The notes: a model not told the origin generated them from the sequence alone. 64,000 nucleotides of DNA from a virus (IMGVR_UViG_3300020200_000004), one strand, 5' to 3'. Numbered from the stretch's first letter, positions 3,712 to 62,523 are shown. Numbers and translations are program-made.

Positions 3712-3725
3712 TTAATTGTACCAAG
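3712..3725 (+). promoter_or_regulatory. Conserved motif TTAATTGTACCAAG, copy 1
   Basis: Exact 14-mer 8 nt upstream of ATG 3733. Confidence 0.5.
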
Positions 3726-3732
3726 TAGACCC

Positions 3733-4017
3733 ATGAAAACCATTTGGCAAAAAATTGGCAGTCGAAGCGGCCCAAGAAGTGATGAATTACCAAAACAAGT
3801 TCCAGAAAAAGGGACTTGGGATGATGACCGTGGACAAATTATTGCTTACCACATTGATCAAGATGGTAATGTAACTATCGGTGACGTTTTATGGCGTCGT
3901 GGTCGATGGGAAAAGCAATATGATAATGTAACTAAAAGGGATGAAATCAATTTTTGCCTTTATGGTCCAGGCTATTCTGACTATGAGTGCACATGTGTCA
4001 AGGTAGAAGAATTTTAA
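3733..4017 (+). CDS. Hypothetical protein (94 aa)
   Basis: ORF with ATG start directly after motif copy 1. Confidence 0.4.
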   Translation: MKTIWQKIGSRSGPRSDELPKQVPEKGTWDDDRGQIIAYHIDQDGNVTIGDVLWRRGRWEKQYDNVTKRDEINFCLYGPGYSDYECTCVKVEEF

Positions 4018-4094
4018 TTGTACATTGCAATTCGCACTTCATCCGTAAAGTGACCTGTATTTTAGCTATTCAGGTGTAGAATTGCAAGAGAATT

Positions 4095-4108
4095 TTAATT
4101 GTACCAAG
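4095..4108 (+). promoter_or_regulatory. Conserved motif TTAATTGTACCAAG, copy 2; a degenerate copy ttaattgtacattg lies at 4015-4028
   Basis: Exact 14-mer in the 240-bp intergenic region upstream of the sigma-factor gene. Confidence 0.45.
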
Positions 4109-4154
4109 AAGGGCATGAACCTTTTGGTTTTTCTGTGTCTCTTGTAAAAGGAGA

Positions 4155-4182
4155 TTGACAATTTCAGCATTTTCTGTACAAT
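4155..4182 (+). promoter_or_regulatory. Host-type sigma-70 promoter (TTGACA-16-TACAAT) upstream of the sigma-factor gene
   Basis: ttgaca at 4155-4160, 16-nt spacer, tacaat at 4177-4182, about 75 nt upstream of ATG 4258. Confidence 0.5.
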
Positions 4183-4257
4183 GATAGATTGCAGGGAATG
4201 CGGGCTTTCTGGGATGAAGGTCAAACAACCACACCACAGTACGAAAGGGTATCTTAA

Positions 4258-5220
4258 ATGGGGATTCCTAGCATTTCACTTTCCAAGGAAGAATTGGAAC
4301 AAAATTGCCGCATTATGCGTAAGGGTAACACAATCTTACGCAAGTTCAGCGAAATAACTGGACTCAGCTTAAAAGCATTCCGCATCCGTCTATTCAAGGT
4401 TGGTCCAGATGTAAAGGAGAACTGGCCTGAATTGACCTTGGCACAACTGGAAGAATTGCAATTTGGTTGGAAGGCAATTCAGCATATCAAGGCAATTGAA
4501 TGGGATATGATTCAGTGTTTTTCTCGCCTTGTGCATCAGCTTGCTTCTCGTTTTTGCAAAGGTTATCAGCTACGCACCAGTGGCTCAATTATTTCGATTG
4601 CCGATTGCGTTCAAGAAGCTACTTTAGCTTTAATTGATGCAATTTTCACTTATGATAATGAAAAAATTAAGTTTATTACCTATGCATTTACGTGTATCAG
4701 GAATAAGCTGACTCAGATGGTTGCCAAGAATGCTCCTCTTAGCCCATTGACAGGGGAAGTGCCTGATTTGATGCGTCGTTATGAGATTCAGAAGGCAAGT
4801 TATAATCGTCATGTGACTGATGATGAGGTTTTCGCTGATCTTAAGTTGGACGAGCGGGAAATTAAGATTTTGACCAAGGCTAAAGCTAAGGTTTGGACTT
4901 CTAGGGAATGGCGTGACACCGATGAATCTCGTAGTTTTTCAAATGACTATACTGAGGCTCGTCATGGCATTGAACATGAGAAGCCTTTCCCGGCTGACTT
5001 TGAAATTGAAGAAGTAATTGGCCGGGCTGGTTTGGATGAGATTGAGAAGAAGATCATTGCTACAGCTATACGTCCTTATGCTGGGTGGCAGACTGATCTT
5101 GCTGCAAACAATATCAATCCAAACACTGGCAAGCCTTATACCCGTCAGCGTATGGGTCAGATTGTGCATGCTGCCTATGATAAGGTTCGCAAGGCATTGG
5201 CGTTAACTGAGAGTAGGTAA
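4258..5220 (+). CDS. Sigma-70-family RNA polymerase sigma factor (phage-encoded)
   Basis: 320 aa; region-2-like ADCVQEATLALIDAIFTYDNEKIKFITYAFTCIRNKL (FxTYA..IR); C-terminal region-4-like TRQRMGQIVHAAYDKVRKAL. Confidence 0.55.
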   Translation: MGIPSISLSKEELEQNCRIMRKGNTILRKFSEITGLSLKAFRIRLFKVGPDVKENWPELTLAQLEELQFGWKAIQHIKAIEWDMIQCFSRLVHQLASRFCKGYQLRTSGSIISIADCVQEATLALIDAIFTYDNEKIKFITYAFTCIRNKLTQMVAKNAPLSPLTGEVPDLMRRYEIQKASYNRHVTDDEVFADLKLDEREIKILTKAKAKVWTSREWRDTDESRSFSNDYTEARHGIEHEKPFPADFEIEEVIGRAGLDEIEKKIIATAIRPYAGWQTDLAANNINPNTGKPYTRQRMGQIVHAAYDKVRKALALTESR

Positions 5221-5260
5221 GAGTGTGGTGTTTTAATTTTACTAAGCTCTCTTATCTCCT

Positions 5261-5296
5261 GCCTGTAGGGATAGCCTTAACCCCTACAGGCTTTTA
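5261..5296 (+). terminator. Rho-independent terminator after the sigma-factor gene
   Basis: cctgtaggg-atagccttaa-ccctacagg stem followed by cttttaatt. Confidence 0.6.
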
Positions 5297-5326
5297 ATTA
5301 TCTTTGTAAGGGACAATGAAAGCGGA

Positions 5327-5362
5327 GTGCCGTTCTATTCTTACGGGAATAGAAGGAAGCAC
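5327..5362 (+). promoter_or_regulatory. Conserved 36-nt hairpin element, copy 1 (UUACGGG loop; 3' arm overlaps the SD)
   Basis: gtgccgttctattcttacgggaatagaaggaagcac; 32 of 36 nt identical to 17143-17178; stem ttctattc/gaatagaa; AAGGAAG SD for GTG 5365 lies in the 3' arm. Confidence 0.5.
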
Positions 5363-5364
5363 CT

Positions 5365-6093
5365 GTGACAAACAATCTAATTAAATATCTGAATAAGCGT
5401 ATTATCCCTTGGCGAAACGATTTTGGGTTGCCAAGGGATATTGCCCATAAAACCCATAGCCCCGTTAATATTTTAATATTAAATGCGGCGACTGAGGTTA
5501 ATAGGTATAATTCACCTTTTTGGGCAACCAAGGAACAATGGAATTCAGTAGGTTGTAAAGTTAGATATTGGGAACAGCCAACTTTAAGTTATTACAACAA
5601 AGACCAAGTAGATGGAAGCTTTGCTTGTGCTGCTGACCCTGTTATGTCTTTTAATGAAGTTGATAAGTTAATTGTTGATACCAAGGTTAATATAAAGTTT
5701 TCGCATAAGCTTATTGCTGAATATCATTATCCACCCAATGATTACATTTTGTTTCCTTATAAAATTCATTTTGATATGGGAGAAGGTAAGGAAGCTGGGT
5801 ATTACAATGCAATTTTCCATGAATTAGCCCATTTTACAGAACCTAAATTGGGTTGGGAATCTGAAAAGTATGGTGTGCCGGTTACTGAGTTACGTGCTGA
5901 AATAGCTGCTGACTTCATCACTTCTTATCTGCGTCTCCCACGATTGGCTTTTAATTTAAGAAGTAACCATCACAAGTGGATGGCAGATTGGGTCATGGCT
6001 TTGTCCTATGCTCCAAATTTGCTTGTTGCGGCTGCTGCTTCGGCTTACAATGCATTTAGATTGATTGTGAAGAAATATGCTAACGTATATTGA
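5365..6093 (+). CDS. ArdC-like protein (N-terminal ssDNA-binding-like region plus HExxH metallopeptidase-like motif)
   Basis: 242 aa, GTG start; NRYNSPFWATKEQWNSVGCKVR resembles the ArdC-N (DUF1738) motif; HELAH motif downstream. Confidence 0.4.
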   Translation: MTNNLIKYLNKRIIPWRNDFGLPRDIAHKTHSPVNILILNAATEVNRYNSPFWATKEQWNSVGCKVRYWEQPTLSYYNKDQVDGSFACAADPVMSFNEVDKLIVDTKVNIKFSHKLIAEYHYPPNDYILFPYKIHFDMGEGKEAGYYNAIFHELAHFTEPKLGWESEKYGVPVTELRAEIAADFITSYLRLPRLAFNLRSNHHKWMADWVMALSYAPNLLVAAAASAYNAFRLIVKKYANVY

Positions 6094-6502
6094 AGGCGAT
6101 CTGTTTAATTCAAAATGCGAATATGTTATATGCACCGTGAACTGTATTGGTGTAATGGGAAAAGGAATTGCTTTAGAATTTAAGAAGCGATACCCAGAAA
6201 TGTACTTGGCTTATAGAGAGGCTTGTGATAAAGGGGAAGTTAAAATAGGAAAGATGTGGGTTTGGAATAATATTATAAATTTTCCCACTAAAGATGATTG
6301 GCGTAACCCTTCCAAGCTAGAGTATATTAAAGCTGGGTTGTTGGACTTGAAAGTGGTTGTAAGAGAAAGAGGAATAAAAAGTCTTGGGATGCCAAAATTA
6401 GGTTGCTCCAATGGAAAATTAACGTGGGAAGATGTTAAAAAGCTAATTGAGATATTTCATTCAGTGGTTCCAGAATTGGATTTGCAAGTTTATTTAAAAT
6501 GA
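6077..6502 (+). CDS. Macro-domain protein, OARD1/TARG1-like (terminal ADP-ribose glycohydrolase family)
   Basis: EGDLF...CTVNCIGVMGKGIALEFKKRYP and LGMPKLGCSNGKLTWEDV parallel human OARD1 EGDLF...[21 protein letters not shown] and LSMPRIGCGLDRLQWENV. Confidence 0.7.
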   Translation: MLTYIEGDLFNSKCEYVICTVNCIGVMGKGIALEFKKRYPEMYLAYREACDKGEVKIGKMWVWNNIINFPTKDDWRNPSKLEYIKAGLLDLKVVVRERGIKSLGMPKLGCSNGKLTWEDVKKLIEIFHSVVPELDLQVYLK

Positions 6503-7140
6503 TTAATCCTTTTCGCATTACTTTTTCTGGAGTAGATGATACAATTACTCCAGAAGCACTGGCCAGTTTCCAAGTAGACTATCCTGAAATCGACTTGGAA
6601 TGGGGGGTTTTGCTGTCCAAGAAAAGAGCGGGAACAGCAAGATATCCTAGCCTTGACTGGTTAGAGAAGGTAGCAAGATATACTATTTTTTTCAAAGATA
6701 AGTTTAAATTGAATTTAGCTGGTCATCTTCAGGGGCAATGGTTGCAAGAGGTAATAAATGGCGAATTCATGTTTCCTAGTTTGTGGAAAAAGTTATTCAG
6801 AAGGATGCAGTTAAATTTTCATGGGCAGACATTAAATGATAATTTTCCCAATAATTTGAAACTTCGTCCTTTAAATTGGGATATGGATTGCAATATATTC
6901 CAAGTTGTTAATGGCGATGATAGATTGGTGCATAAAGCAAGGAAATTAGGTATAAATGTTTATCCTCTTTATGACTCATCTTGTGGGAATGGCAAAGTAC
7001 CTGACTTTTGGATTAAAGGGTATTTTGATGTAAATGGTTTTGCAGGTGGGTTGGGACCGGATAATATAAAAGAAGAATGGTTTAAGATAGTCGATGCTGC
7101 TGATGGAAAAGACTTCTGGATTGATTGTGAAACACAATAA
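6499..7140 (+). CDS. Hypothetical protein (213 aa)
   Basis: ORF in operon-like + strand run; no motif recognised. Confidence 0.4.
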   Translation: MINPFRITFSGVDDTITPEALASFQVDYPEIDLEWGVLLSKKRAGTARYPSLDWLEKVARYTIFFKDKFKLNLAGHLQGQWLQEVINGEFMFPSLWKKLFRRMQLNFHGQTLNDNFPNNLKLRPLNWDMDCNIFQVVNGDDRLVHKARKLGINVYPLYDSSCGNGKVPDFWIKGYFDVNGFAGGLGPDNIKEEWFKIVDAADGKDFWIDCETQ

Positions 7141-7194
7141 GAACGGATGAAAAGTTTGATTTAGAGAAATGCAAGAAAGTTATAGAAAACATAT

Positions 7195-8241
7195 ATGAAA
7201 TTCACACATTTGCTAGAAATTAAATTAGGGACTTGGTTTGGCATCAAGGTTATTTTAGACTTATGTTTGGTTGTTTTATGGATAACCTTGGCGATAATAA
7301 ATTTCAGTTCTATTGCAATTATATTATCTGTTTATGCATTTGTGCTTTTGCATGAATTTGGGCATGCGTTAGTTGGTAGATATATGGGGTTAAATTGTTA
7401 TCAGATAAAGATATATCCATTTGGAGGGTGCGCCTCATTTAGTAGCGAAATGGATGTGGGATATAAAGAATTTTGGATGGTTGCTGCTGGTCCGTTTGTA
7501 AACATAGTATTGGCATATATCTTTTGTGGTTTGTATTTTGTTTGCCCAAGTTATTTTTTATCTCAATGCACCACTATTAATTTGGCATTAGCTATATTTA
7601 ATTTAGTCCCTCTTTTTCCTATGGATGGCGGGCGTCTTGCAAGAATAGTATTTAATAAAATATTCAACAATACAATAAAAGCTACTCGTTTAGTCAACAT
7701 TGTGGGAATACCCCTGGCTTTGGCCCTATTTGTATTAGCTGTATATTCTTCCAATTTCATTTTGGGCATTATTGCTTTAATAATGCCTTTGGCTGGTACT
7801 TATGAACTTTCTGAGTTAAAACATAAGAAAAAGGCAAAACTTTATTTAGAGGCAGCTTATGCAGCAAAGAATCATGATTATGAAACTCAAGAAAGAATAT
7901 CTAATGAATTACACAGTGACGGGACAAGTGATATAATTAAGAATTATTTTTATATCGAACCCGATTACAAACTGGATTATATCATAGAAGTTTTGGAAAG
8001 CGATTTGGAAGGATATAAAAAGACAGGAGAATTCTTGAAATTTGCTATAGATTTTCACAAGTCTGTAAATGAAAAATTAAAAACATTGCATAAAATGATA
8101 AATGAAGATTTCGCTGACGGAGTATATTACAGAACTAGATTGTGCATTGACAATTTACAGCATAGAGCTTACAGAAAAGAGTTGGAAGAAATTCTTGATA
8201 AGCGTGGTTATATGACAAGATATGCACCTTTTATTAATTAA
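7195..8241 (+). CDS. Site-2 protease family (M50) membrane zinc metalloprotease
   Basis: HEFGHAL (HExxH) in a hydrophobic segment plus NLVPLFPMDGG (LDG-type motif); multiple predicted TM helices. Confidence 0.7.
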   Translation: MKFTHLLEIKLGTWFGIKVILDLCLVVLWITLAIINFSSIAIILSVYAFVLLHEFGHALVGRYMGLNCYQIKIYPFGGCASFSSEMDVGYKEFWMVAAGPFVNIVLAYIFCGLYFVCPSYFLSQCTTINLALAIFNLVPLFPMDGGRLARIVFNKIFNNTIKATRLVNIVGIPLALALFVLAVYSSNFILGIIALIMPLAGTYELSELKHKKKAKLYLEAAYAAKNHDYETQERISNELHSDGTSDIIKNYFYIEPDYKLDYIIEVLESDLEGYKKTGEFLKFAIDFHKSVNEKLKTLHKMINEDFADGVYYRTRLCIDNLQHRAYRKELEEILDKRGYMTRYAPFIN

Positions 8242-8821
8242 CATGAATAAAATTAAGTTAAATAAGGTAGTTGACAGGCAATTTGTGCAAAAGCTATTGT
8301 CTGTAGGCAGAGCCTTTGATGTAGACCAAGGCGGATACTATGATGCCAGATCGGGAGTGGTAAATTTTTGGTGCGGGCCGGATAATAAGCCTTCTTGTTG
8401 GCCTAACGACATTAAAATTGGTGGTCTTAAGCATCCAAGGGATTATGTGGGCGGGTTATATTGGGAAGTAGAAGGGGACGAATTCCATCTTTATTTGGAA
8501 GCTGATCCGTTTAGTTTGCTTGAATTTAGGAGCGGCGACAGATATAATAAGGATTGTCTGTCCAAAGATGATTCGGATTCTGTTTTTGATTGGTTAAAAG
8601 AGCAAGCTGATGGTTTAATACGTTTGGCTGGTGTATCTGTGGAATCAAAGGGTACTAAATGCCCTTTTTGTGATTATGTTTCGCCGCCTACTGAACTTTT
8701 GAATGATTTAATGGATCATATGGAAGGGCATGATGGTGTAAAGGTTACAGGTATATTTATGGGTAAGTCAATTGTCATTGAAACCAACCGTGGCGACTTG
8801 ACATTAGAGGAAAGTTGGTAA
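8222..8821 (+). CDS. Hypothetical protein (about 193 aa; probable start ATG 8243)
   Basis: ORF; CPFCDY zinc-ribbon-like pair near the C-terminus. Confidence 0.4.
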   Translation: MHLLLINMNKIKLNKVVDRQFVQKLLSVGRAFDVDQGGYYDARSGVVNFWCGPDNKPSCWPNDIKIGGLKHPRDYVGGLYWEVEGDEFHLYLEADPFSLLEFRSGDRYNKDCLSKDDSDSVFDWLKEQADGLIRLAGVSVESKGTKCPFCDYVSPPTELLNDLMDHMEGHDGVKVTGIFMGKSIVIETNRGDLTLEESW

Positions 8822-8837
8822 AATAAGAGGGTTTGAA

Positions 8838-9173
8838 ATGGCAGCACCTAAGGGTAATGTTTATGCACAAAAGGAACAATATGCGTATCCATCTTATCAT
8901 GGTTCGCATAAGAGCATGGTCATGGAAGAGGAAACAAAGCAGTTGAAGGATAAAACTTTAACTGTATTGAAGGATGAATTTGGTCTTTATGTCACAAAGG
9001 CCAAATATCTTGACAATGGTTTGGCTGATCCTTATCGTAATGCTTGGCGTGGATATAGAAAGGAGCTTTACAGCAAGCTTATTGCACCTGTCAAGCCTGA
9101 TGAAAAAGAAAAGTCTTTGGTAGAGATTGAAGAAGAGTTGCAAGCTAACCTGGAACAAATCCTTAAAGATTAG
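8838..9173 (+). CDS. Hypothetical protein (111 aa)
   Basis: ORF with GGGTTTG-type RBS context; no motif recognised. Confidence 0.4.
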   Translation: MAAPKGNVYAQKEQYAYPSYHGSHKSMVMEEETKQLKDKTLTVLKDEFGLYVTKAKYLDNGLADPYRNAWRGYRKELYSKLIAPVKPDEKEKSLVEIEEELQANLEQILKD

Positions 9174-9181
9174 AGGCTAAA

Positions 9182-9577
9182 ATGAATGATATTGTAAGCA
9201 AAATTGAGAAATCGCTTAAAGAATGTTGGGCGACACCTGGAAGCGTATCTTTTAACAGTCGGTGTAGAGATGATATTTTTAATATTAGCATTTCACCGGC
9301 AGTTAGGGAAACAGTAGGTGGGGCTGAGGATGGTTCTCAGTCATATCCTCCCTTTGCTATGGAATTGAATAAGTTTATTGTCCAGGTATTTGATAAATGT
9401 CCCAAAATTACTTTAACTGGTCAAAATGGGGATGACGTTCCTTATCTTCATTTTAGGGGTAAAATTGGTGGGCAACTGTGTAATGTTATTGTGTTAACTA
9501 GGCCGCATAATACACAGCAAGTTGCAGAAATTTTCTATGCATATGGGCCTAAAGCTGGGACAGTTGAGAACAAGTGA
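9182..9577 (+). CDS. Hypothetical protein (131 aa)
   Basis: ORF; no motif recognised. Confidence 0.4.
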   Translation: MNDIVSKIEKSLKECWATPGSVSFNSRCRDDIFNISISPAVRETVGGAEDGSQSYPPFAMELNKFIVQVFDKCPKITLTGQNGDDVPYLHFRGKIGGQLCNVIVLTRPHNTQQVAEIFYAYGPKAGTVENK

Positions 9578-9586
9578 AGGAATATC

Positions 9587-9641
9587 CCCCAATCATATGT
9601 GAAAAAGGCAAAAATCTAACTGTTTTCACATATGATTGGGG
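9587..9641 (+). promoter_or_regulatory. Perfect 19-bp inverted repeat hairpin (17-nt loop) between genes; the 3' arm overlaps the SD of the RNA-ligase gene
   Basis: ccccaatcatatgtgaaaa ...17 nt... ttttcacatatgattgggg; SD ggggagaagg begins inside the 3' arm; ATG at 9651. Confidence 0.55.
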
Positions 9642-9650
9642 AGAAGGTTT

Positions 9651-10280
9651 ATGAAGGAATATCCAAAAATCTTGGGGGTGAGTGAAGCTAATGACAAGCC
9701 ATGTGTTGCTTTCTACAAATATGACGGGTCTAATCTAAGATTTGAATGGCGATTTAAGCGTGGGTGGTATAAATTTGGGACACGGCATAGATTATTTAAT
9801 GAAACAGACCCAGAATATGGTGAATCTGTATCTATATTTATGGCAAAATATGCTGATGGTATAGAAAAAATTTTAAAGGATAAATTCAAAAAAATAGAAT
9901 CTGCAATCGCATATTGTGAATTTTTCGGGCCGTATAGTTTTGCAGGAATCCATGAAGAAGCTTTTCTAGGCGTTAATTCTAACGCTCCTAAAGATTTAAT
10001 CCTTTTTGACGTAAATGTACATAAAAAAGGATTTATTCCACCGTGGCAGTTTCTTGATTTTTTTAATCATTTGCATATAGCCAAAGTTGTTTATGAAGGA
10101 CATTTTACCGAAGATTTTGTACAAGATATAAGAAATAGTGTCTATAATGTAGAGGAAGGTGTTATAGTAAAAGGAGGCCAATCTGTACATGAAATTTGGA
10201 TGAGAAAAATTAAAACTTACGCATATCTTAAAAAACTTAAAGAAAAATTTAAAATTAATTGGAAAAATTATTGGGAATAA
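9651..10280 (+). CDS. ATP-dependent RNA ligase (Rnl2-like nucleotidyltransferase domain)
   Basis: Motif I KYDGSNLR (KxDG lysine-adenylate), motif IV EEGVIVKGG, motif V IWMRKIK; about 210 aa. Confidence 0.6.
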   Translation: MKEYPKILGVSEANDKPCVAFYKYDGSNLRFEWRFKRGWYKFGTRHRLFNETDPEYGESVSIFMAKYADGIEKILKDKFKKIESAIAYCEFFGPYSFAGIHEEAFLGVNSNAPKDLILFDVNVHKKGFIPPWQFLDFFNHLHIAKVVYEGHFTEDFVQDIRNSVYNVEEGVIVKGGQSVHEIWMRKIKTYAYLKKLKEKFKINWKNYWE

Positions 10281-10345
10281 TGTATAATGTTAAATTGTGC
10301 CAAAATATAATATAGATGAATTGAGAAAATTGTATGAGAGCGTGC

Positions 10346-10392
10346 ACTATAATAATTTATTATGCCTGTCCAGAGGCTATAGTATCTGGAAG
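10346..10392 (+). repeat. 47-bp intergenic repeat element A, copy 1 (second copy at 17041-17087)
   Basis: actataataatttattatgcctgtccagaggctatagtatctggaag, identical at both loci. Confidence 0.6.
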
Positions 10393-10459
10393 GTGTAACG
10401 AATTACAAGAAAGATTTGGTTTAGAGTGGAAAAAATATGTGTGATTAATCTATTAAGAC

Positions 10460-11512
10460 ATGAGTTATGAATACGATTTAGAGATAATTATTCCGGTAGC
10501 TAATAAACAGCCATATCTTCAAAGAATTATTGATTTTAAAGAATTTAATTTGCTTAACATTAATAAGTATAAAATTATAATTAAACTTTTAGTCGGTCCA
10601 GAAGAGATGCCGGAAGATATTTTTGAAAAATGGCCCTGTGATGTAGAAAAAATTGCTTTTGCATCAAATATTCATGTATCTAAGATATACAATTATTACC
10701 TTTCATTAAAAGACGGAGATTTTAAAAAGACCAGATGGTTTGCTAAGTTTGATGATGATTCTATCAGTGATATAGATGGGATAATATCAAATCTAGATGC
10801 AGATTTTGATTGCGAAAGAGACTATTATTTAGCCACCAATATATTTTATGATGATCATGAAGTGGAAATTGAACTTTTGGAAGAATTGGGGTTTTCACGT
10901 TGGTTTAAACATCATAAAAAAGTTCATCATGAGTGTGAAGGATCAATTCTATCAAACACTGCATTAAGGCGTATATTAAATAATGAACAAGCTAGAAATT
11001 TTTTGGAAAGAAGAAAAGATATAGAAAAAGGGTTTTGCGATATCGCTTTGGGGTGTGCTGCTAGAATATGTAAAATACATCTAACAAAAGCAGAATTCAT
11101 GACGCATATGCATTTTTTACATAAATTCACTTTGTTTGGTGGCCATCTTGCTCATATTCATTTTTTGTCTCATGATCGTCGTGGAGAATTATATAATATT
11201 TTTAAGAAAGCCATTAATAATAAAATATGTCCTGATATAATTGCCGAGGAAATATGTGATAAAAGCTATTTGTTTTCTAGGGATGATGGGACAATAATTT
11301 CTACAGTAAAATTATCAAGAAATGGCAAGGTGACTGGTAAAAAATTAAATGATAATGAAACTTTTTGGGATGTGGAAGATAGTAAACTAAGATTTTTAAA
11401 TATAGAAGGGAAACCCAGCACTGTTTTTGATATGTATAATTTCAATAAAATGTCTGGACAATTCTTATTTGACAAAAAAATAACTCATATGTTGCAAAGA
11501 GTATATGAATAA
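10460..11512 (+). CDS. Putative glycosyltransferase (GT2-like)
   Basis: 350 aa; LEIIIPVANKQ N-terminus and FAKFDDDS (DxD-like) are weak GT-A fold hints. Confidence 0.3.
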   Translation: MSYEYDLEIIIPVANKQPYLQRIIDFKEFNLLNINKYKIIIKLLVGPEEMPEDIFEKWPCDVEKIAFASNIHVSKIYNYYLSLKDGDFKKTRWFAKFDDDSISDIDGIISNLDADFDCERDYYLATNIFYDDHEVEIELLEELGFSRWFKHHKKVHHECEGSILSNTALRRILNNEQARNFLERRKDIEKGFCDIALGCAARICKIHLTKAEFMTHMHFLHKFTLFGGHLAHIHFLSHDRRGELYNIFKKAINNKICPDIIAEEICDKSYLFSRDDGTIISTVKLSRNGKVTGKKLNDNETFWDVEDSKLRFLNIEGKPSTVFDMYNFNKMSGQFLFDKKITHMLQRVYE

Positions 11513-12278
11513 ACCATTGATGATGTTGTCCCTGCCGAATACTGGAACTGATTGGTTGGTTAAATGTTTATTAAAGACTAATAAGTATAATTATTCTAGG
11601 GAATTTTTCAACCCAATGGTGAACGAAAAGTATTGTGATATTTTATCGAAATGTTTTGGGTGTGAATATGCTTCTCTTGCGCATTTGATTGCTAAAGAGC
11701 CTATTTTGTCTTTGGCAACAAGTGTTTTAAATGATAGTTGGAATAAAGAAACATTTGATTTTACTAAAGAGACATTTTCTGCTTTTAAAATTGATTTCTT
11801 TTTTAAAAAATTTACTTGTTTTGTTTTATTCAGAAAAATAGAACAAAGTATGCCGTCGAATGTCTTTGAAAGGATATATCCATTAAGAAGCTGGTATGAT
11901 GCTATGTTTTTCTCTTTAATAGCCAATAAAGCATCTCTTGAGCCAGATATAAGAAAAATGGTTGAAGTTACTGAAAAATATGGTTTGATAGAGAGACAAA
12001 TAGCTGCTTTTGTGATATATTACAGCAAGTTACTTAAAGAAGCTAAAGATCGTCAACTTATTGTTTTGGAATATGATAAATTGCTTTCCTTTTCAGCGGT
12101 AAAATTAGTTGATTATTTGACGATTCCATTTATTTGCAATCCTACATTAACTGCATCTGAAGTTTTGGAAACTAGAAAACCACGAATGGATAATTTTTGC
12201 TCATTAGGGAAAAAAGCGGTTAAATTTAAAGAACTAATCACATCTTTTGCACCAGAAGAATACAAGGCTTTATGTTAA
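11505..12278 (+). CDS. Hypothetical protein, possibly sulfotransferase-like
   Basis: 257 aa; SLPNTGTDWL resembles the PAPS-binding PKSGTTW motif. Confidence 0.3.
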   Translation: MNKPLMMLSLPNTGTDWLVKCLLKTNKYNYSREFFNPMVNEKYCDILSKCFGCEYASLAHLIAKEPILSLATSVLNDSWNKETFDFTKETFSAFKIDFFFKKFTCFVLFRKIEQSMPSNVFERIYPLRSWYDAMFFSLIANKASLEPDIRKMVEVTEKYGLIERQIAAFVIYYSKLLKEAKDRQLIVLEYDKLLSFSAVKLVDYLTIPFICNPTLTASEVLETRKPRMDNFCSLGKKAVKFKELITSFAPEEYKALC

Positions 12279-12796
12279 AGGTTATGCCTAGATATCAAAC
12301 TGACAGACCTGATATAAGCGGGTGGTTCCTTGATTATGAAGGACGTTTTTATCATGATTTAGTCTCTAAAATTGAAAATGGTATTGTTGTCGAAATTGGT
12401 AATTGGCATGGGCTTTCATTATCATATGTTGTGGAAGTTTGTGCCCAGCAAAACAACAAAATTTATGCAGTAGACAAATTTCATTGCACTGAATTTCTTA
12501 AAAATTTTAAAAATTGGCCTCAAAATACAGTAGAATTAATTACAATGTCTTCGGCGGAAGCTTCACTTAAGTTTGATGACGCTTCTATAGACCTAGTTTT
12601 CATAGACGCAAATCACGAATATAATTCAGTGCATGCTGATATAAATGCTTGGATGCCTAAAATAAAAAAAGAAGGAATTATTTCAGGCCATGATTATTGT
12701 TTAGCTTGGCCTGGCGTTATAAAGGTTGTTGATTCTTTGCTTCCTAATAGAAAAATTCAAGATAGAATTTGGTATTGTAAGCTGGAGGGAATATGA
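12272..12796 (+). CDS. Class I SAM-dependent methyltransferase (Methyltransf_24 / macrocin-O-MT-like)
   Basis: VVEIGNWHG (motif I) and LVFIDANHEYNSV. Confidence 0.55.
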   Translation: MLKVMPRYQTDRPDISGWFLDYEGRFYHDLVSKIENGIVVEIGNWHGLSLSYVVEVCAQQNNKIYAVDKFHCTEFLKNFKNWPQNTVELITMSSAEASLKFDDASIDLVFIDANHEYNSVHADINAWMPKIKKEGIISGHDYCLAWPGVIKVVDSLLPNRKIQDRIWYCKLEGI

Positions 12797-12797
12797 A

Positions 12798-13994
12798 ATG
12801 GGCATGTATACAGAATTGGTTTTTGCTTCTGAACTTAAAAAAGACATCCCAGATGAAACTGTAAATCTTTTGGATTTAATGGTTCGTGGGGAAGGCAAAT
12901 TATTTGAAGAAACATTTTCAACTACGCTTCCAGATCATGAATTTGTTATCACTGGAAGCATCAAACAAAAGAGTGCTGAAGATGTTAAGGAATTGGTAGA
13001 TTTGACAGAAAAGTTCCTGCAAGAACAATCCATCTATAAAGGCAAAGCTGTTAAAGTTTCTTTTGAATGGCAAAGAATTAACAGACAGTTTGATCCTTCC
13101 CAAGACTGTCCGCAATTCATGAATTTGGAGAACGTTAAGGAAGATGACCTTATTTTTGGTGAAGATGTACAAAATGCCGTAAACATTGGTCTTTTTGCTC
13201 CACTTGAGAATGCTGATGCTTGCCGTCGTTATAAAGTACCGCTTAAGCGTGGTATTTTGCTGCATGGTCCATACGGCACAGGTAAAACTCTTTGTGCCAA
13301 TGTTACAGCTTTGAAAGCAAGAAAGCACGGTTTTACTTTCATTTATCTTGATAGTGTTGAAGACCTCAAGAAAGGTTTACAATTTGCGGCTCAACATGCT
13401 CCTGCTGTACTATTTGCAGAAGATATTGATCGTGTCACAAATGGGTCAAGAACTAAAGACCTTGACGCCATTCTTAACACTTTGGACGGCGTTGATACTA
13501 AGAATTGTGAAATCATTACAGTTTTTACCAGCAACCACATTGAAGATATTAATCCGGCTGCTTTGAGAATGGGCAGATTGGATACTTTAGTGGAAGTTAC
13601 TCCTCCTGATGCCGTTGCTGCTGTGCGTTTAGTTAAACTTTATGGGCGTGGCTTGCTTTCCCATAATATTAATTTTGATAAAGTGGGAGTAGCTTTGTCT
13701 GGTAATATTCCTGCATATATTAGGGAAACTGTAGAAAGGGCTAAGATTGCAGCTATTTCCAGGCTAAAAGGGCAAGACATTAATGGACATGTATTGGAGC
13801 AGGATTTGTTAAATGCTGCTTCTTCTATGAAGGTGCATGCTGAATTGCTTAAAGATAAGAAGAAGATTGTTAATCCCAACGCTGAGGTTTTGGTTAAGAT
13901 TCCTTCTCAGCACCAATTGGCTCAGACATTGCTTGGTGAACTTCACAAGAATGGGCAAGAGGTATTAGCAGCCTCCTCTGATGATTATGATTAG
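12798..13994 (+). CDS. AAA+ ATPase
   Basis: Walker A LLHGPYGTGKT, Walker B VLFAEDID, sensor region; start ATG 12798 with GGAGGGA RBS (the ORF track's upstream start at 12726 overlaps the previous gene). Confidence 0.7.
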   Translation: MGMYTELVFASELKKDIPDETVNLLDLMVRGEGKLFEETFSTTLPDHEFVITGSIKQKSAEDVKELVDLTEKFLQEQSIYKGKAVKVSFEWQRINRQFDPSQDCPQFMNLENVKEDDLIFGEDVQNAVNIGLFAPLENADACRRYKVPLKRGILLHGPYGTGKTLCANVTALKARKHGFTFIYLDSVEDLKKGLQFAAQHAPAVLFAEDIDRVTNGSRTKDLDAILNTLDGVDTKNCEIITVFTSNHIEDINPAALRMGRLDTLVEVTPPDAVAAVRLVKLYGRGLLSHNINFDKVGVALSGNIPAYIRETVERAKIAAISRLKGQDINGHVLEQDLLNAASSMKVHAELLKDKKKIVNPNAEVLVKIPSQHQLAQTLLGELHKNGQEVLAASSDDYD

Positions 13995-14059
13995 TGCCAA
14001 TTCCTTCATCAGAAGATGAATTGAAGCACATTAGTCTGTTCTGTCACCTTCCTTGGTGG

Positions 14060-14096
14060 GGCTGGATTATGGGAAACTGTAATCCAGCCTTTTTTC
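14060..14096 (+). terminator. Rho-independent terminator after the AAA+ gene
   Basis: ggctggatta-tgggaaactgt-aatccagcc followed by tttttt. Confidence 0.65.
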
Positions 14097-14131
14097 TTGA
14101 CAGCTAAAGGAAAAAGTGTTATAGAATTATT

Positions 14132-14416
14132 ATGTGGACTTCTGAAAAAAATGGTTGGGTAATTGCTTTTAAAGAACCATATCCAGAGACTTGTAATTAT
14201 GAAGAAATACAAGCAATTTTTAAGAAATTATTTTTAAAATTGCGACATATTTGCCCAAAAGGAGTAAAACTTAAGTCAGTGCAGTCATTAGTTGGCACTT
14301 TATTTGTCGCTGGTTCAAATGAAGCTTGCCTTGAACTACAAAAAAGGTTAAAATCCACTAATCTGGCTCATATGGAAGAAAACAGGAGTAAAGTGGAGAT
14401 TAGTTATGGAAAATGA
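14132..14416 (+). CDS. Hypothetical protein (94 aa)
   Basis: ORF after terminator. Confidence 0.35.
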   Translation: MWTSEKNGWVIAFKEPYPETCNYEEIQAIFKKLFLKLRHICPKGVKLKSVQSLVGTLFVAGSNEACLELQKRLKSTNLAHMEENRSKVEISYGK

Positions 14417-14544
14417 AAAATGCAAATTCATTGTGCCAACTTTCTGTGAATGGCAAATGTGTACTGATCCTTCTGCTTGTCCTTTCATAGATAAGCATGG
14501 GAATTGTAATAGACCCAAAGACGTAAAACAATGTCCAATAGAGG

Positions 14545-14802
14545 ATGAAAATGCCGTACATCAAGCAAAAAGATCGACCGAAGTTTGATAGTGCATTAAA
14601 AGATTTCCCCGTTCCTGATACAGAAGGCGAACTTAATTATATTTTAACTAAGTTATGCCATCAGTATATCCAAAAAAAGGGAAAAACATATTCTACTTAT
14701 AATCAAGTCGTTGGCGTATTAGACTGCGCCAAATTAGAGATTTATAGACGACACGTTGGAATTTATGAAGATCAGAAAATTATTGAAAATGGTGACGTGT
14801 GA
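14545..14802 (+). CDS. Hypothetical protein (85 aa)
   Basis: ORF. Confidence 0.3.
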   Translation: MKMPYIKQKDRPKFDSALKDFPVPDTEGELNYILTKLCHQYIQKKGKTYSTYNQVVGVLDCAKLEIYRRHVGIYEDQKIIENGDV

Positions 14803-16104: not shown

Positions 16105-16169
16105 TTTTTTGAAATTTTGAAATATAATACAGGAAGCACTCTTTCTAACAACTCAATGGAGTATCCTGT

Positions 16170-18283: not shown

Positions 18284-18285
18284 AC

Positions 18286-19456: not shown

Positions 19457-19457
19457 C

Positions 19458-58023: not shown

Positions 58024-58094
58024 GGCCCCATAGCTTAAGAGGAAAGCAGGGTGCTTATAACGCCAAGACGGTAGTGCGACTCTACCTGGGGCTA
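58024..58094 (+). tRNA. tRNA, predicted anticodon UAU (Ile, AUA-reading); short
   Basis: Acceptor ggcccca/tggggct, D-arm gctt-aagagga-aagc (GG in loop), anticodon loop cTTATAa, T-arm ggtag-tgcgact-ctacc; the anticodon stem has one mismatch and one G-U pair. Confidence 0.45.
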
Positions 58095-58668: not shown

Positions 58669-58682
58669 TTAATTGTACCAAG
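58669..58682 (+). promoter_or_regulatory. Conserved motif TTAATTGTACCAAG, copy 9 (no + strand ORF immediately downstream)
   Basis: Exact 14-mer; followed by the minus-strand HNH gene and then a tRNA-like gene. Confidence 0.35.
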
Positions 58683-58686: not shown

Positions 58687-59397
58687 TTAGGCAACAATTG
58701 AAATTAAAGCAGTGGAATTTATTTCCCATAAGTTGTGGTCTAACTCCCAATGACAATTTCTACATAAAGATATAAGATTGCTGAGTTGATTTATGTCATT
58801 AACAATTGTTTCCTTGGGAAAACTCCGTATTGGCTTAATGTGGCAGACTTCGTAGTGTTTATCATAACCACATTTGACGCAATATTTTGGTAGACTTGAT
58901 TCTCTGTATTTTGTCCTAGCGTGTTCTCTTATTCTCGCATAGATTTGGTATTTGTATTTATAATGAAATTCTTTTATAGCTATTTTACCAAGACTCTCTA
59001 ATGAAATTTTATTTGTTTCTGGTTTATTCGTTATGCATTTTTCGCAATATTTTTTCCTCGAAGCAATAGGGTCATTACAGACACGGCAATAACCTTTAGG
59101 CTTTCGTTTTGGGCAATGAACATTAGTATGTATTGCGCAGCATCTAGAGGAACAGAATTTGGGGTTTAAAGTTGGTTTTTCACAAAGATGGCATGGATGA
59201 AGTTTTCTATAATGTCTTGAAACATCAGTATTGAATATTTCTTTTATTGCATTAGCCCATGAACCGAATCTATTTTTAATTGTTGTTCTGGCATATTGGC
59301 CTAATTTGTCATAATGTTTTGAAGTAGGTATTTTATTTATTTGTTCAAAAACTAATTTTATATCTTCGGCTATTTGTTCTTTGGTTAATCTATACAT
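58687..59397 (-). CDS. HNH homing endonuclease with multiple zinc-finger Cys clusters
   Basis: 236 aa on the minus strand; C-terminal EVCHIKPI...NLISLCRNCHWELDHN (HNH); CHLC..., CRVC..., CEKC..., CVKC pairs. Confidence 0.6.
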   Translation of the reverse strand: MYRLTKEQIAEDIKLVFEQINKIPTSKHYDKLGQYARTTIKNRFGSWANAIKEIFNTDVSRHYRKLHPCHLCEKPTLNPKFCSSRCCAIHTNVHCPKRKPKGYCRVCNDPIASRKKYCEKCITNKPETNKISLESLGKIAIKEFHYKYKYQIYARIREHARTKYRESSLPKYCVKCGYDKHYEVCHIKPIRSFPKETIVNDINQLSNLISLCRNCHWELDHNLWEINSTALISIVA

Positions 59398-59492: not shown

Positions 59493-59569
59493 GCCCCTGT
59501 ACCGGCTCCGGTTTCTACCCGGATGTACCGTAATTGGAATAGATGCAGGTTCGAGTCCTGCCAGGGGTG
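59493..59569 (+). tRNA. tRNA-like gene (canonical acceptor and T-arm; candidate anticodon arm with UCU/Arg; the D region does not fold canonically)
   Basis: Acceptor gcccctg/caggggt, T-arm gcagg-ttcgagt-cctgc, hairpin tccgg-tttCTac-ccgga; the 5' and 3' ends are near-identical to the tRNA at 46078. Confidence 0.35.
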
Positions 59570-59854: not shown

Positions 59855-60181
59855 ATGAAAATTAAATTCTGCATTGCCCTATTGCTTTTAGTAGGATGTA
59901 AGCAACAAAGTGAGAAAAAGGATTTGGATTGGCACATAGCGGATCGATCCAGGTTTATGAGTGAAAATCGGCAGGCTGTTCGCATTCTAAGCATTGATGA
60001 CGAAGGAGCATTCCGTAAAGTCGAAGTAGAAGGCATTGTAACAAAAGAAAGAACGTGGGCATATTTTCGGAAAAGTACAAAACCAAAAGTAGGCGAAATC
60101 TGGCGTGTTAATCCTGTGGCTGACGGGAAAATAGCTTGGTTTGAACTTTCTTGGACACCTGCTTCTCTGGAGGATAAATAA
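59855..60181 (+). CDS. Putative lipoprotein (108 aa)
   Basis: MKIKFCIALLLLVGCKQQ: signal peptide with LVGC lipobox. Confidence 0.4.
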   Translation: MKIKFCIALLLLVGCKQQSEKKDLDWHIADRSRFMSENRQAVRILSIDDEGAFRKVEVEGIVTKERTWAYFRKSTKPKVGEIWRVNPVADGKIAWFELSWTPASLEDK

Positions 60182-60965
60182 TGTCATCAGAATTTCTAGA
60201 AGGATACAGAGCGGTTCTTCAGGCGGAAATAAAAAAATATAATACCGCAACAAGAATCAAATTACGTTTAATAGATGATGATGACAAAATTGCTTATGGC
60301 GAATTTGAGGTTGAAGAGTTAACAAAATTTTTAGAAGAAGTGAAAAATGGCTGTGACAAAAGGTGAAATCAGAACATGGTTGCTTGAAGCTAAAAAAGAA
60401 GGTGCAACACACGTTATTGTAGTTTGCGACACATTTGACTACGATGATTATCCAGTTAAAGTAATGCCTGGAGAAGATGCGAAAAAAAGGGCATTTCAGA
60501 TTAATGGAAACGACATATGATAAAAAATGTGCGTGACCAACATCATGTTTTCTTGGAAGGATTGAAAAGCACCACACCTAAATTACTTAACCCCAAAGAA
60601 GGCGTAACTTACCATGAATTTATAATGGGAAGCTAAATGAGAAATATCAAAACCTATACTGTTGTTCTTAATCGTCCACACACTAATTCATTTCTTATGT
60701 TGGAAATCGAAGCTAAGGACTTTGATAATGCATGCTGTCAGGCTTTACACAACATGGATGAATGGGTGATTGCTGATATGCCTATTGATGAGGGATATGA
60801 ACAGAAGCGTGATAATGGTGAATCATGAATAAAGTAATTGTGGATGATAAGTTTAACTTAATCCCAGCATATAGTTTGATTAAAGGTCAACTTGGTATAA
60901 TACATGCTCCAGAAGGCGAAGAAACTAAGTATGATGGTTGGGTTTTACTATAAATGGAATAAACC

Positions 60966-61358
60966 ATGAACGAACGAATTAACTTATCTGATACTCCTAT
61001 TAGTGCCATTACCAAGCTATGTGAAGGTAATCCAGGGGCATTAACTGTACTTGCCAATATCTTAAAAGAGGGTGGCAAGATTGATCCTGATGCTGGATTC
61101 GGTGAACCATTCTTTATAATCCTTAATTTCGATAGTTATAATATCTATGGGCCTAGAATTTGGATGTTGTATAAGGATGTATGCGAACAGAAGCTTGATA
61201 AAACGATTGCGATGGTAAGAGCTACCCAAATGGGGTTTATTAGTGCAAGTAAATTAAATTTTGCAATCGACAATGGTGGGGCTGGATTAGACGTTGAGGC
61301 TGTTTGTAAGCAAGTAAAAGAACGTTTGCCTAATTTTCAATTCAAAGAAGAAGTTTAA
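60966..61358 (+). CDS. Hypothetical protein (130 aa)
   Basis: ORF. Confidence 0.35.
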   Translation: MNERINLSDTPISAITKLCEGNPGALTVLANILKEGGKIDPDAGFGEPFFIILNFDSYNIYGPRIWMLYKDVCEQKLDKTIAMVRATQMGFISASKLNFAIDNGGAGLDVEAVCKQVKERLPNFQFKEEV

Positions 61359-61368
61359 TTGTACCAAG
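61355..61368 (+). promoter_or_regulatory. Conserved motif TTAATTGTACCAAG, copy 10
   Basis: Exact 14-mer about 118 nt upstream of ATG 61487. Confidence 0.4.
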
Positions 61369-61486
61369 AAGGTTAAAACCCCTCCTAATGCGTCCAGATT
61401 AGCTTATAATAAGTTTTGTAAGTTAAAATGAGATTCGGATCGTTAAATGGGTCTGGATGCGTTATAATTGAATTTAAAGGGATAAA

Positions 61487-61978
61487 ATGGGATATGAGAC
61501 TAAGATGTATGTGGTTAAGCCTTATGGGTTTGCAGATGATGTACCACATGGTCAGGTTATTTGCAGTATTGATCTTTGCAAATGTGATGAGGATGGGGCT
61601 GTAGGAAGGTTGGTAAGTGATTCACACAGTTTTAAAGATAAAAATCCTACATTTGCTTTGTATAATGATTTTCATCCAGATGGGCAACTTGGCGCAATTG
61701 AAAAATTACAAAAATTGCATGATGAATTAAAGGATAATGGGCATAAAGAACTAATACAGGAAGTTATTGATTATGTAGAAGACCCAGGACATTGCACCAA
61801 AGATAATTATGATGACTTTTTTGGTGTTATTTCGATTGATGATATGATTGAGGCATTGGAGAAGGATATTGCCAGCGAAAAAGTGCCGTATCGCAGGTTT
61901 GTAATTGCTTTGGATATGCTGCAATCTGTTAAAAAGAACTTCCAAGAGAAAGTGAAGATTCTTACATACGGGCACTAA
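61487..61978 (+). CDS. Hypothetical protein (163 aa)
   Basis: ORF. Confidence 0.4.
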   Translation: MGYETKMYVVKPYGFADDVPHGQVICSIDLCKCDEDGAVGRLVSDSHSFKDKNPTFALYNDFHPDGQLGAIEKLQKLHDELKDNGHKELIQEVIDYVEDPGHCTKDNYDDFFGVISIDDMIEALEKDIASEKVPYRRFVIALDMLQSVKKNFQEKVKILTYGH

Positions 61979-61985
61979 ATTATGT

Positions 61986-62504
61986 ATGTTGAGTTTTATG
62001 GACTGGCTTGAGAGTGTTTATCGTATAGACCAAAACCCAATTAGTGATTTTTCATCGGATTTAAAAACTTATTACAGAAGTCCAGATTGGAGCAGTAGCG
62101 GTTCATTCTCTAATCAAGAAAATATACCTAAAGATTGGCTAAAGGAAGTAGGTTTGTTTGGCGGAAAACTAAAAAATATAATTCCTTATGCCACACCTAG
62201 AAATGTAAGATGGATTGTCACAAAGGATTTAAGCCGCCCTACAGTCATATTTGCTGAAAAAGATAAACAGGCGATTACTTCTTATCGGCCTTATTTATCT
62301 AAATTTTCTCAATCGTCATTTACTCAGCAATCAAATGGAGAATTTTTCAGTCATGACCCTAAACAAGCGATGAAACAGGAAATGATTAGGAATCCGTTGC
62401 GTTTTATGCAAAAATGGTATAATGTTAAATTTGTGCCTAATTTAGATGATTATGCCAAGCAGTTGAAGTCACAAGATATCAATTTTGACTCAGAAGGGTT
62501 ATAA
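61986..62504 (+). CDS. Hypothetical protein (172 aa)
   Basis: ORF. Confidence 0.4.
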   Translation: MLSFMDWLESVYRIDQNPISDFSSDLKTYYRSPDWSSSGSFSNQENIPKDWLKEVGLFGGKLKNIIPYATPRNVRWIVTKDLSRPTVIFAEKDKQAITSYRPYLSKFSQSSFTQQSNGEFFSHDPKQAMKQEMIRNPLRFMQKWYNVKFVPNLDDYAKQLKSQDINFDSEGL

Positions 62505-62509
62505 GATTT

Positions 62510-62523
62510 TTAATTGTACCAAG
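62510..62523 (+). promoter_or_regulatory. Conserved motif TTAATTGTACCAAG, copy 11
   Basis: Exact 14-mer 7 nt upstream of ATG 62531. Confidence 0.5.

Follow-up and report, generated by a model that had tools for sequence, protein, structure and literature searches.

A 14-mer with an invariant GTAC core as a probable phage-specific promoter in uncultivated huge phages

Introduction

The virus IMGVR_UViG_3300020200_000004 is a large, uncultivated freshwater phage represented by metagenomic DNA. In the stretch of 64,000 nucleotides of this DNA analysed here (the window), nearly all genes lie on the + strand, and the 14-mer TTAATTGTACCAAG is present in 11 exact copies, exclusively on that strand. 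Judged from its sequence context, this 14-mer is very probably a phage-specific promoter. It would be a single-element promoter acting on the sense strand, with no −35 partner, and on balance we consider likely a fuller model in which the element is read by a sigma factor, generates a class of leaderless mRNAs and is fused at one site with a terminator into a terminator–promoter cassette.

Almost all knowledge of huge phages comes from metagenomes, and the motif offers a purely sequence-based way of sorting their genomes into expression classes. In the complete genome of a relative (LR756511), it cleanly parts a 300-kb accessory half from the half that houses the replication and structural genes. 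The motif can further be used to correct start codons, by flagging leaderless genes, and suggests promoter–sigma pairs for synthetic use.

Placement of the 14-mer in the window

A preliminary description of the window had reported 11 exact copies of the 14-mer, all on the + strand; these were recovered at the same positions, and no copy arose in 100 dinucleotide-preserving shuffles. Apart from an array of clustered regularly interspaced short palindromic repeats (CRISPR), k-mers of the 14-mer are the only strongly over-represented intergenic words in the window. A degenerate copy, which differs from the 14-mer by three mismatches, is also present, although it starts one base before the position first given (4014 instead of 4015). 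The copies and the features adjoining them are listed below, with open reading frames abbreviated as ORFs.

3712–3725, + strand: motif copy 1, 7 nt before the ATG of a 94-aa ORF (3733); short-spacer class, cATG
4014–4027, + strand: degenerate copy TTAATTGTACATTG, with the TTAATTGTAC part kept; its TAA is the stop codon of ORF 3733–4017
4095–4108, + strand: motif copy 2, with the ATG of the sigma gene 149 nt downstream
4155–4182, + strand: TTGACA-16-TACAAT, a canonical promoter of the sigma-70 type located after motif copy 2 and before the sigma gene
4258–5220, + strand: sigma-70 family factor of the phage (320 aa, spanning regions 2 to 4), which may read the motif
28162–28212, + strand: intrinsic-terminator-like hairpin with a 17-bp stem and a T-run; its loop and stem top contain motif copy 3
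28178–28191, + strand: motif copy 3, with a VWA-domain ORF (28240) 48 nt downstream
32187–32200, + strand: motif copy 4, followed after 8 nt by the thioredoxin ATG (32209)
33618–33631, + strand: motif copy 5, with rIIB (33673) 41 nt downstream; its TAA is the stop codon of the preceding ORF
35827–35840, + strand: motif copy 6, with rIIA (35881) 40 nt downstream; in the non-conserved 3′ tail of an inserted EndoVII-like ORF (35232–35924)
48940–48953, + strand: motif copy 7, followed after 8 nt by the ATG of an AAA/clamp-loader-like ORF (48962); the motif's TAA ends the preceding ORF as its stop codon
56898–56911, + strand: motif copy 8, followed after 6 nt by the ATG of a 93-aa ORF (56918)
58669–58682, + strand: motif copy 9; a minus-strand HNH gene (58687–59397) lies between it and the next + strand feature, a tRNA (59493–59569)
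61355–61368, + strand: motif copy 10, with the next ORF starting 59 nt (61428) or 118 nt (61487) downstream
62510–62523, + strand: motif copy 11, followed after 7 nt by the ATG of a 100-aa ORF (62531)

Ten of the 11 copies stand upstream of a + strand gene in the same orientation, and the exception, at 58669, is explained by the inserted HNH gene that it faces. The earlier statement that the motif always lies just upstream of genes therefore holds for ten copies, with the reservation that the copy at 4095 is 149 nt from the sigma ATG and that the copy at 35827 falls within the tail of the EndoVII-like ORF. Approximately 13% of the window is non-coding by our own ORF set, and none of the 11 copies lies in a conserved gene body. 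In four copies the TAA of the motif (at 33621, 48943, 56901 and 61358) serves as the stop codon of the preceding gene. Two homing-endonuclease-like genes adjoin motif copies, one at 58687–59397 on the minus strand (HNH plus homing-endonuclease repeat) and one at 35232–35924 on the + strand (EndoVII-like); the former splits the motif at 58669 from its presumed target and the latter reads through the motif into the start of rIIA.

Conservation around the 14-mer stops within 1–3 nt. The base immediately upstream is T in ten of the 11 copies and purines are weakly favoured on the 3′ side; the T-runs said to precede the motif amount to this T and to a T at position −2 in seven copies. No second element, neither −35-like nor a −10 at fixed distance, was found 15–35 nt upstream or downstream of the copies, and comparison of the 11 window copies revealed no conserved structure around them. 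A mobile element, a miniature inverted-repeat transposable element or a CRISPR repeat was rejected as the identity of the motif: conservation ends 1–3 nt off the 14-mer, the spacing of copies is irregular and the CRISPR repeat of the window is an unrelated 37-mer. Restriction avoidance need not be invoked because GTAC is not depleted in the window (93 tetramers observed, 97 expected). A coding N-terminal extension was likewise set aside, the TTG of the motif being in frame with the ATG only at 8-nt spacers, and a site of the NtcA type (GTA-N8-TAC) was inspected by eye and rejected. Two partial copies were noted, ATTGTACCAAAA at 63899–63910, in the unannotated 3′ end of the window, and TTAATTTTACTAAG at 5233–5246, which lies just 3′ of the sigma stop codon and is without GTAC.

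The copies fall into two groups by their distance to the start codon. For the genes at 3733, 32209, 48962, 56918 and 62531 the spacers are 7, 8, 8, 6 and 7 nt, in agreement with the 6–8 nt originally noted; in the other six copies the start codon is 40–150 nt away, several of these genes having a separate sequence resembling a Shine–Dalgarno (SD) element near that codon. It had been pointed out that the short spacers leave no room for an SD element. This is true, but the argument is weak here, as a strong SD core precedes only 24% of the ORFs called in the window (9% in the background).

Conservation in related huge phages

Homologues of the window sigma factor are very few. Those of rIIA are many, and because they sit on contigs of up to ~620 kb, the window phage belongs to a clade of huge phages. 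At every related locus whose DNA was obtained, the motif of the window or a drifted version of it occupies corresponding positions. The versions found at these loci (L numbers) are given below, with the percentage identity of the sigma or rIIA protein to that of the window.

L007 (sigma 36%): TAAyTGTACCAAG before the sigma gene and before the next AAA gene
L008 (sigma 40%): TAACTGTACCAAG before the sigma gene
L133 (rIIA 48%): TAAyTGTACCAAG, two copies before rIIA
L136 (rIIA 45%): TAATTGTACCAAG before rIIB, rIIA and a third gene
L134 (rIIA 46%): TAACTGTACCAAC, five copies, including those before rIIB and rIIA
L138 (rIIA 40%): TAAACCnTCTGTACCATGA, five copies
L139 and L141 (rIIA 42% and sigma 40%): AACCGTACCATGA, including a copy before the sigma gene
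L137 (rIIA 39%): GTAAGCCGTACTAG, three copies
L012 and L142 (sigma 24%): AAATTGTACG, six copies, two of them before the sigma gene
L143 (sigma 25%): TTCATGGTACGGT, two copies, one before the sigma gene

When the regions upstream of rIIA and rIIB from four lineages (rIIA 45–48% identical) were aligned, TAAyTGTACCAA emerged as the sole conserved block. GTAC is common to all the lineage variants (TAACTGTACCAAC, CTGTACCATGA, AACCGTACCATGA, GTAAGCCGTACTAG, AAATTGTACG and CATGGTACGGT) and is kept down to 24% sigma identity, while the flanks drift with phylogenetic distance, so that divergence of the motif tracks divergence of rIIA. Across 12 loci the lineage patterns occur 48 times in the forward and never in the reverse orientation relative to the genes. 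The L143 motif, known from two copies, resembles the reverse complement of the L141 motif; as it aligns in direct orientation with the L142 variant, we tentatively attribute this likeness to the palindromic GTAC core. Near the sigma gene of L142, a small protein encoded at 8076–8456 carries the C-terminal domain of RNA polymerase alpha (PF03118) and may be a further component of transcription hijacking.

The search of IMG/VR yielded no rIIA-related locus, and among the matches listed there the exact 14-mer appeared only as single, chance-level occurrences in unrelated contigs. Scans with the sigma profile returned two weak matches in high-GC metagenome contigs, in IMG/VR only a 527-kb contig that was already included here, and nothing in bacterial genomes.

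Distribution over a complete genome

LR756511.1, a 595-kb complete genome of an uncultured phage, is the only record in the phage database in which a close rIIA (37%) is found together with this sigma (31%), and carries the motif as TTrmAGCTGTACwAAa. The genome-wide count against gene class that had been suggested earlier was performed in this relative: AGCTGTAC occurs 134 times on both strands, compared with ~16 expected, and is by far the most over-represented strand-specific 8–10-mer of the genome. Forward copies number 55 between 0.7 and 19 kb (approximately one per 300 bp), where the genes are on the + strand, and reverse copies fill 19–293 kb, where the genes are on the minus strand, so that the strand of the motif switches with that of the genes. 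Beyond 300 kb only three copies remain, and this motif-poor half contains the genes for DNA polymerase (336 kb), helicase (372 kb), ribonucleotide reductase (444 kb) and portal (531 kb). No comparably over-represented word was found in that half. The motif in LR756511 thus behaves as a class-specific, orientation-bound signal.

Within the terminal array (L145, 700–19200), each of ~55 small genes has its own copy of TAAAGCTGTACTwA, and the region of 19–300 kb is dominated by the gCAGCTGTACAA form, which hints at two promoter sub-classes.

Predicted transcription start and leaderless mRNAs

In LR756511, the next ATG-initiated ORF of at least 45 codons follows the end of GTAC at a bimodally distributed distance, with 16 cases at 10–11 nt, none at 15–21 nt and a broad distribution at 22 nt or more. 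An ATG-initiated ORF lies 8–13 nt after GTAC in 14% of motif copies and after 2.6% of non-motif GTACs. In all 16 cases of the 10–11-nt peak the base preceding the ATG is T or C, compared with 51% for the genes of LR756511 generally, and the other 115 copies show an excess of T at the tenth and of A at the eleventh base after GTAC. A pyrimidine at −1 followed by a purine at +1 is the typical pattern of a transcription start site. The window conforms to the same arrangement: in its short class the ATG follows GTAC by 10–12 nt, with C before the ATG in four of five cases and CA in the fifth, and the seventh base after the 14-mer is only ever A or C. Short-class cases are also found in relatives (L137 at 11 nt; L142 at 12–13 nt). 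This class makes up ~45% of the motif copies in the window and ~14% of those in LR756511.

Because of the sharp ATG peak at 10–11 nt and the pyrimidine before it, the simplest reading is that transcription would start ~11 nt after GTAC, so that an ATG standing there would head a leaderless mRNA. A precise prediction follows, namely that 5′ ends should map to the first purine ~7 nt after the 14-mer, which is about the eleventh nucleotide after GTAC. On these spacing statistics, the window genes at 3733, 32209, 48962, 56918 and 62531 are predicted to yield leaderless mRNAs or mRNAs with leaders of 1–2 nt. The start codon of one of them, thioredoxin at 32209, is fixed by its CGPC active site, which occupies residues 11–14. 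The other copies would generate leaders of 35–145 nt, long enough to carry an initiation region of their own.

With the start so placed, the TA of GTAC, invariant in all lineages, would come to lie at −13/−12 or −12/−11. We propose that GTAC supplies the T and the A captured by region 2 of a sigma-70-family factor at the upstream edge of a −10-type element, TACCAA; TTAATTG would then be an upstream extension and the final G would stand just downstream of the element. Several observations weigh against this model. The gene calls in LR756511 from which the spacings derive are crude, and a few relatives have spacings of 16–20 nt, so the gap at 15–21 nt is not absolute. In addition, counting the A of the ATG as +1 puts TAC at −13 to −11, one position upstream of the canonical numbering, and the hexamer TACCAA ends in A, not in the usual T.

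A copy within a terminator-like hairpin

The copy at 28178 had been described as the loop of a terminator hairpin. The hairpin is real, with a stem of 17 bp in which 28162–28178 pairs with 28189–28205, a 10-nt loop UAAUUGUACC, a free energy of −25.8 kcal/mol (z = −5.4) and the sequence UUUUUCUU following it; the motif extends beyond the loop, its first T and last AAG belonging to the stem. The suggested terminator–promoter cassette fits this structure. Transcripts arriving from upstream would stop at the hairpin (28162–28205), and those initiated in its 3′ arm could not form it and would escape termination, which would make the site a compact version of the cassette. In two relatives a terminator hairpin stands directly before the motif (L136 at 2804 and L007 at 3748), a layout that we read as the uncompressed form of the same arrangement.

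The motif is not itself an intrinsic terminator, as only the 28178 copy is embedded in a GC-rich hairpin with a T-run. For five other copies, within 1–20000 and 27000–37000, no terminator-like site was among those listed, and the flanks of the remaining five showed none by eye. A junction of host type, contrasting with those built on the motif, is present at 14058–14125, where a canonical TTGACA-17-TATAGA promoter, located before ORF 14132, comes immediately after a strong intrinsic terminator with a 15-bp stem and a T-run.

The candidate reader and competing explanations

The identification of ORF 4258–5220 as a phage sigma factor was confirmed by a match to Pfam Sigma70_r2 (E 3.7e-11) and a profile alignment to RpoD 355–604. 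The protein matches primary and group-3 sigmas from region 2 to region 4 (FliA/WhiG and cyanobacterial RpoD-like models). By our own reading of the alignment, Y430 of region 2.3 is kept and the W433 position is F in the window or W in relatives (F.TYA[F/W]); these aromatic positions would be among the region 2.3 residues that capture the −11A.

The motif of the respective lineage stands directly before the sigma gene in the window, L007, L008, L141, L142/L012, L143 and LR756511. Among the motif-bearing genes of the window, the sigma gene alone also has a perfect TTGACA-16-TAnnnT promoter (4155–4182), and a perfect TTGACA precedes it in L007, L008 and L141 as well; we estimate the chance of this occurring in all four within ~150 nt at ~1e-6. 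A cascade with positive feedback would need just such a pairing of TTGACA and motif at the sigma gene. In such a cascade the factor would first be made from the canonical promoter at 4155–4182 and would then boost its own synthesis through the copies at 4014 and 4095, directing the host core RNA polymerase to the motif elsewhere. The −10 elements of these canonical promoters read TGTACAAT and TGTACAGT in the window and L141, and the TA of GTAC can for that reason sit where a sigma factor expects positions −12/−11.

Several lines of evidence speak against recognition by the primary sigma of the host. Consensus scans did not score the motif as a sigma-70 promoter although textbook ones coexist in the same phages: no + strand hit to the pair TTGACA-17-TATAAT listed for 1–20000 and 27000–37000 coincides with a copy, while canonical promoters are found in the window at 4155, 14097 and 42386 and relatives also carry TTGACA-16/17-TAnnnT promoters in sense. 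Furthermore, crude sequence-motif searches of the window and LR756511 found no phage RNA polymerase, and LR756511 encodes a single sigma of this family. Uniform flanks within each genome that differ between lineages suggest a fast-evolving reader encoded by the phage. The numbers of sigma-70-like promoters counted in each half of LR756511 favoured neither the phage sigma nor a host reader. The promoter proposed in the preliminary description, with its leaderless or short-leader mRNAs, is supported by the conserved block in rIIA and rIIB upstream regions that could not otherwise be aligned, by the co-orientation with genes and by the bimodal spacing with its pyrimidine/purine signature; its tie to the sigma factor is circumstantial, and we put the likelihood that the factor at 4258 reads the motif at about even or slightly better.

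Four considerations count against the sigma factor in this role. Its C-terminus is region-4-like, from which a −35 element would be expected, and none is seen. LR756511 and L142 are without a perfect TTGACA before the sigma gene. The motif marks early-type genes, including the dense terminal array of LR756511, and known phage sigmas usually serve later classes. Finally, the sigma gene could be a member of the regulon rather than its reader, two possibilities that co-occurrence cannot separate.

The last two considerations lead to an alternative that is unlikely but deserves serious attention, in which the motif defines an early promoter class read at time zero by the host holoenzyme or an injected factor and the sigma directs another class, in the replication/structural half. 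The genes behind the motif are indeed classical early types (rIIA, rIIB, small ORFs and the sigma gene), LR756511 has a promoter-per-gene array of 55 copies in its terminal 19 kb and no such signal in the DNA polymerase/portal half, and the known phage sigmas T4 gp55, SPO1 gp28/gp34 and 7-11 gp47 serve middle or late genes. Such a class would, however, have to be read from a sequence unlike the canonical sigma-70 promoters that the same phages carry in sense; the uniformity within genomes and the drift of the flanks point to a fast-evolving phage reader, a canonical promoter and the motif at the sigma gene would be redundant, and the other half of LR756511 has no second over-represented motif.

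It is improbable that the motif is instead the site of a non-sigma DNA-binding protein of the phage (an activator, a repressor or an appropriator) by which the polymerase of the host would be recruited or blocked, much as at the T4 MotA box. Fourteen invariant contiguous bases exceed the needs of most sigma elements, the core is partly symmetric (TTG TAC CAA), and uniformity within genomes with drift between lineages would suit any phage-encoded reader. Nevertheless, neither a −35-like element nor a fixed downstream −10 was found at the 14-mer, which argues against both the MotA-box style and a bipartite promoter. With the ATG only 6–8 nt off in five copies, a promoter further downstream could not express those genes, and, to judge from the sharp 10–11-nt ATG peak and the pyrimidine at −1, the start would be set by the site itself.

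A signal acting in RNA, either an endoribonuclease cleavage site that creates mature 5′ ends or a site for the ribosome or a translational regulator, appears very improbable. The motif does occur in 5′ regions, next to the ATG in five cases and once in a hairpin loop, and a combined transcription/translation signal had been entertained. The latter idea found no support, given the six distant copies and the weakness of the SD argument in this phage. An RNA-level role is also difficult to reconcile with these distant copies, several of which have a separate SD-like sequence near the start codon, with the missing conserved structure, with the overlap of upstream stop codons and with the position of the motif directly after terminators in relatives, where upstream transcripts would already have ended.

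We give hardly any credence to the possibility that the opposite strand is the functional one, the reverse complement CTTGGTACAATTAA acting as an extended −10 (TGgTACAAT) that fires antisense into the 3′ end of the upstream gene. TACAAT with TG two bases upstream is near-consensus, one copy was flagged by the scan (33649–33621, minus strand) and the reverse complements in several lineages yield TACnnT hexamers; yet the fixed sense ATG distance of 10–12 nt with its preceding pyrimidine, the strict placement before sense genes in 48 of 48 copies and the CTTGG and TTAA flanks would all go unexplained, and, read in reverse, the variants of L138 and L137 no longer have a T at the end of the hexamer. 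Equally implausible is a promoter for a single-subunit or non-canonical phage polymerase of the T7, N4 or phiKZ/AR9 type, since the T7-class look of a contiguous invariant block of 14–17 nt, AT-rich in its 5′ part and with purines at its 3′ end, is offset by the lack of DFDGD (beta-prime) or T7-like motifs A and C in ORFs of at least 80 aa in the window and LR756511 (crude tests) and by the encoded sigma, which implies use of the host core enzyme.

Relation to known promoters

A direct precedent for the proposed sigma-read promoter is that of the phiEco32 sigma gp36, a single element tAATGTAtA with starts 6–8 bp downstream, gp36 having been reported to be without homology to region 4 (PMC8948821). 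Both systems would rely on a phage factor of the sigma-70 family working with host core on one conserved element with no −35, in our case as deduced from sequence, and there is a loose likeness between TAATGTA and TAATTGTA. In contrast to gp36, the sigma described here resembles region 4 at its C-terminus; no relationship between the two proteins is detectable, the only match of this sigma in the phage database being LR756511, and the motif precedes early-type genes, whereas the gp36 promoters are middle/late.

The late promoters of T4, TATAAATA, are likewise −10-only, numerous in the genome and read by gp55 on host core; gp55, a truncated sigma, depends on gp33 and the sliding clamp and transcribes late genes. 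The repeated, −10-only design would be shared, but the sigma here is full-length, the genes are early in type and the sequence is unrelated. As in the T7 class, a contiguous, near-invariant block (14–20 nt across the two) stands before genes and sometimes directly after terminators, although no gene for a single-subunit polymerase was found in the window or LR756511 by a crude motif test. The lambda cI mRNA transcribed from PRM is leaderless. The transcripts predicted here similarly start at or within 1–2 nt of AUG and carry no SD element; unlike cI, they would form a systematic class (~45% of window copies, ~14% in LR756511), as judged from spacing. A comparable sigma cascade operates in the large lytic phages SPO1 (gp28) and 7-11 (gp47), where an early sigma gene is read by the host holoenzyme and its product redirects the core (see also PMC8948821). 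The promoters of those factors are bipartite, with a −35 and a −10 (7-11: GTAAtg-16-aCTA), whereas no second element is detectable here.

No published account of the motif sequences was found in the searchable literature, in which string matches were confined to primer sequences, and no relevant paper on promoters of huge phages was found; a paper on phage G had used a generic promoter predictor. The motif probably represents a new member, in uncultivated huge phages, of a well known kind, the phage-specific and probably sigma-dependent single-element promoter. What this member would add is a conserved GTAC core, a genome-scale partition in a 595-kb phage and a putative leaderless class.

A far-reaching extension, which we offer as speculation and consider a rather long shot, is that the huge-phage clade, with genomes of up to ~600 kb, possesses a private GTAC-core promoter code co-evolving with a sigma that is present at about time zero, either packaged in the virion or made from one host-type promoter, and that serves more than 100 early units, a sizeable fraction of them leaderless. 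If so, such a code would insulate early expression both from competition by host sigmas and from SD-dependent initiation.

Other features of the window

Contigs identical to the window phage are present in JGI 3300020193 and 3300020214 as well as in several assemblies from SRA and ENA, the longest on record being 112 kb; the same-phage contigs from other samples are 100% identical and hence yielded no microdiversity signal. A megablast search of the first 25 kb of the window against 50,697 phage records gave no match. The recognisable genes are early or accessory in type and include those for the sigma-70 factor (4258–5220), rIIB (33673), rIIA (35881) and thioredoxin, together with AAA/clamp-loader-like, macro and ADP-ribosyl-glycohydrolase domain, two TnpB-like and two homing-endonuclease-like genes.

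The CRISPR-like array, within 39302–44470, has ~25 copies of the 37-nt repeat GTTGCAATAGATTAAAACAATGTGCTGTTATTGGCAC with a period of 72–73 bp. Directly before it lies a 1020-aa ORF (39302–42364) with no Pfam or PHROG match and a faint PDB match to a C2c1/Cas12b RuvC-like structure (E 0.14), which makes it a candidate phage-borne Cas12-like effector. The putative CRISPR leader contains the perfect TTGACA at 42386, and no copy of the 14-mer serves this locus. TnpB/Cas12f-like (OrfB_IS605) genes are encoded at 480–1706 (minus strand) and 24870–26042 (+ strand) and also occur in L007, L136 and L139.

Three tRNA genes are located at 46078–46151, 58024–58094 and 59493–59569. The last was missed by ARAGORN and by a whole-window Rfam scan and was detected only by a local scan, at 36 bits. 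The first has the anticodon TTA and would thus be an ochre (UAA) suppressor; stop-codon recoding in phages usually concerns TAG or TGA, so that a UAA suppressor is unusual. An unusual auxiliary gene, a homologue of indoleamine 2,3-dioxygenase, is present at 17165–18283 (Pfam IDO, E 5e-58).

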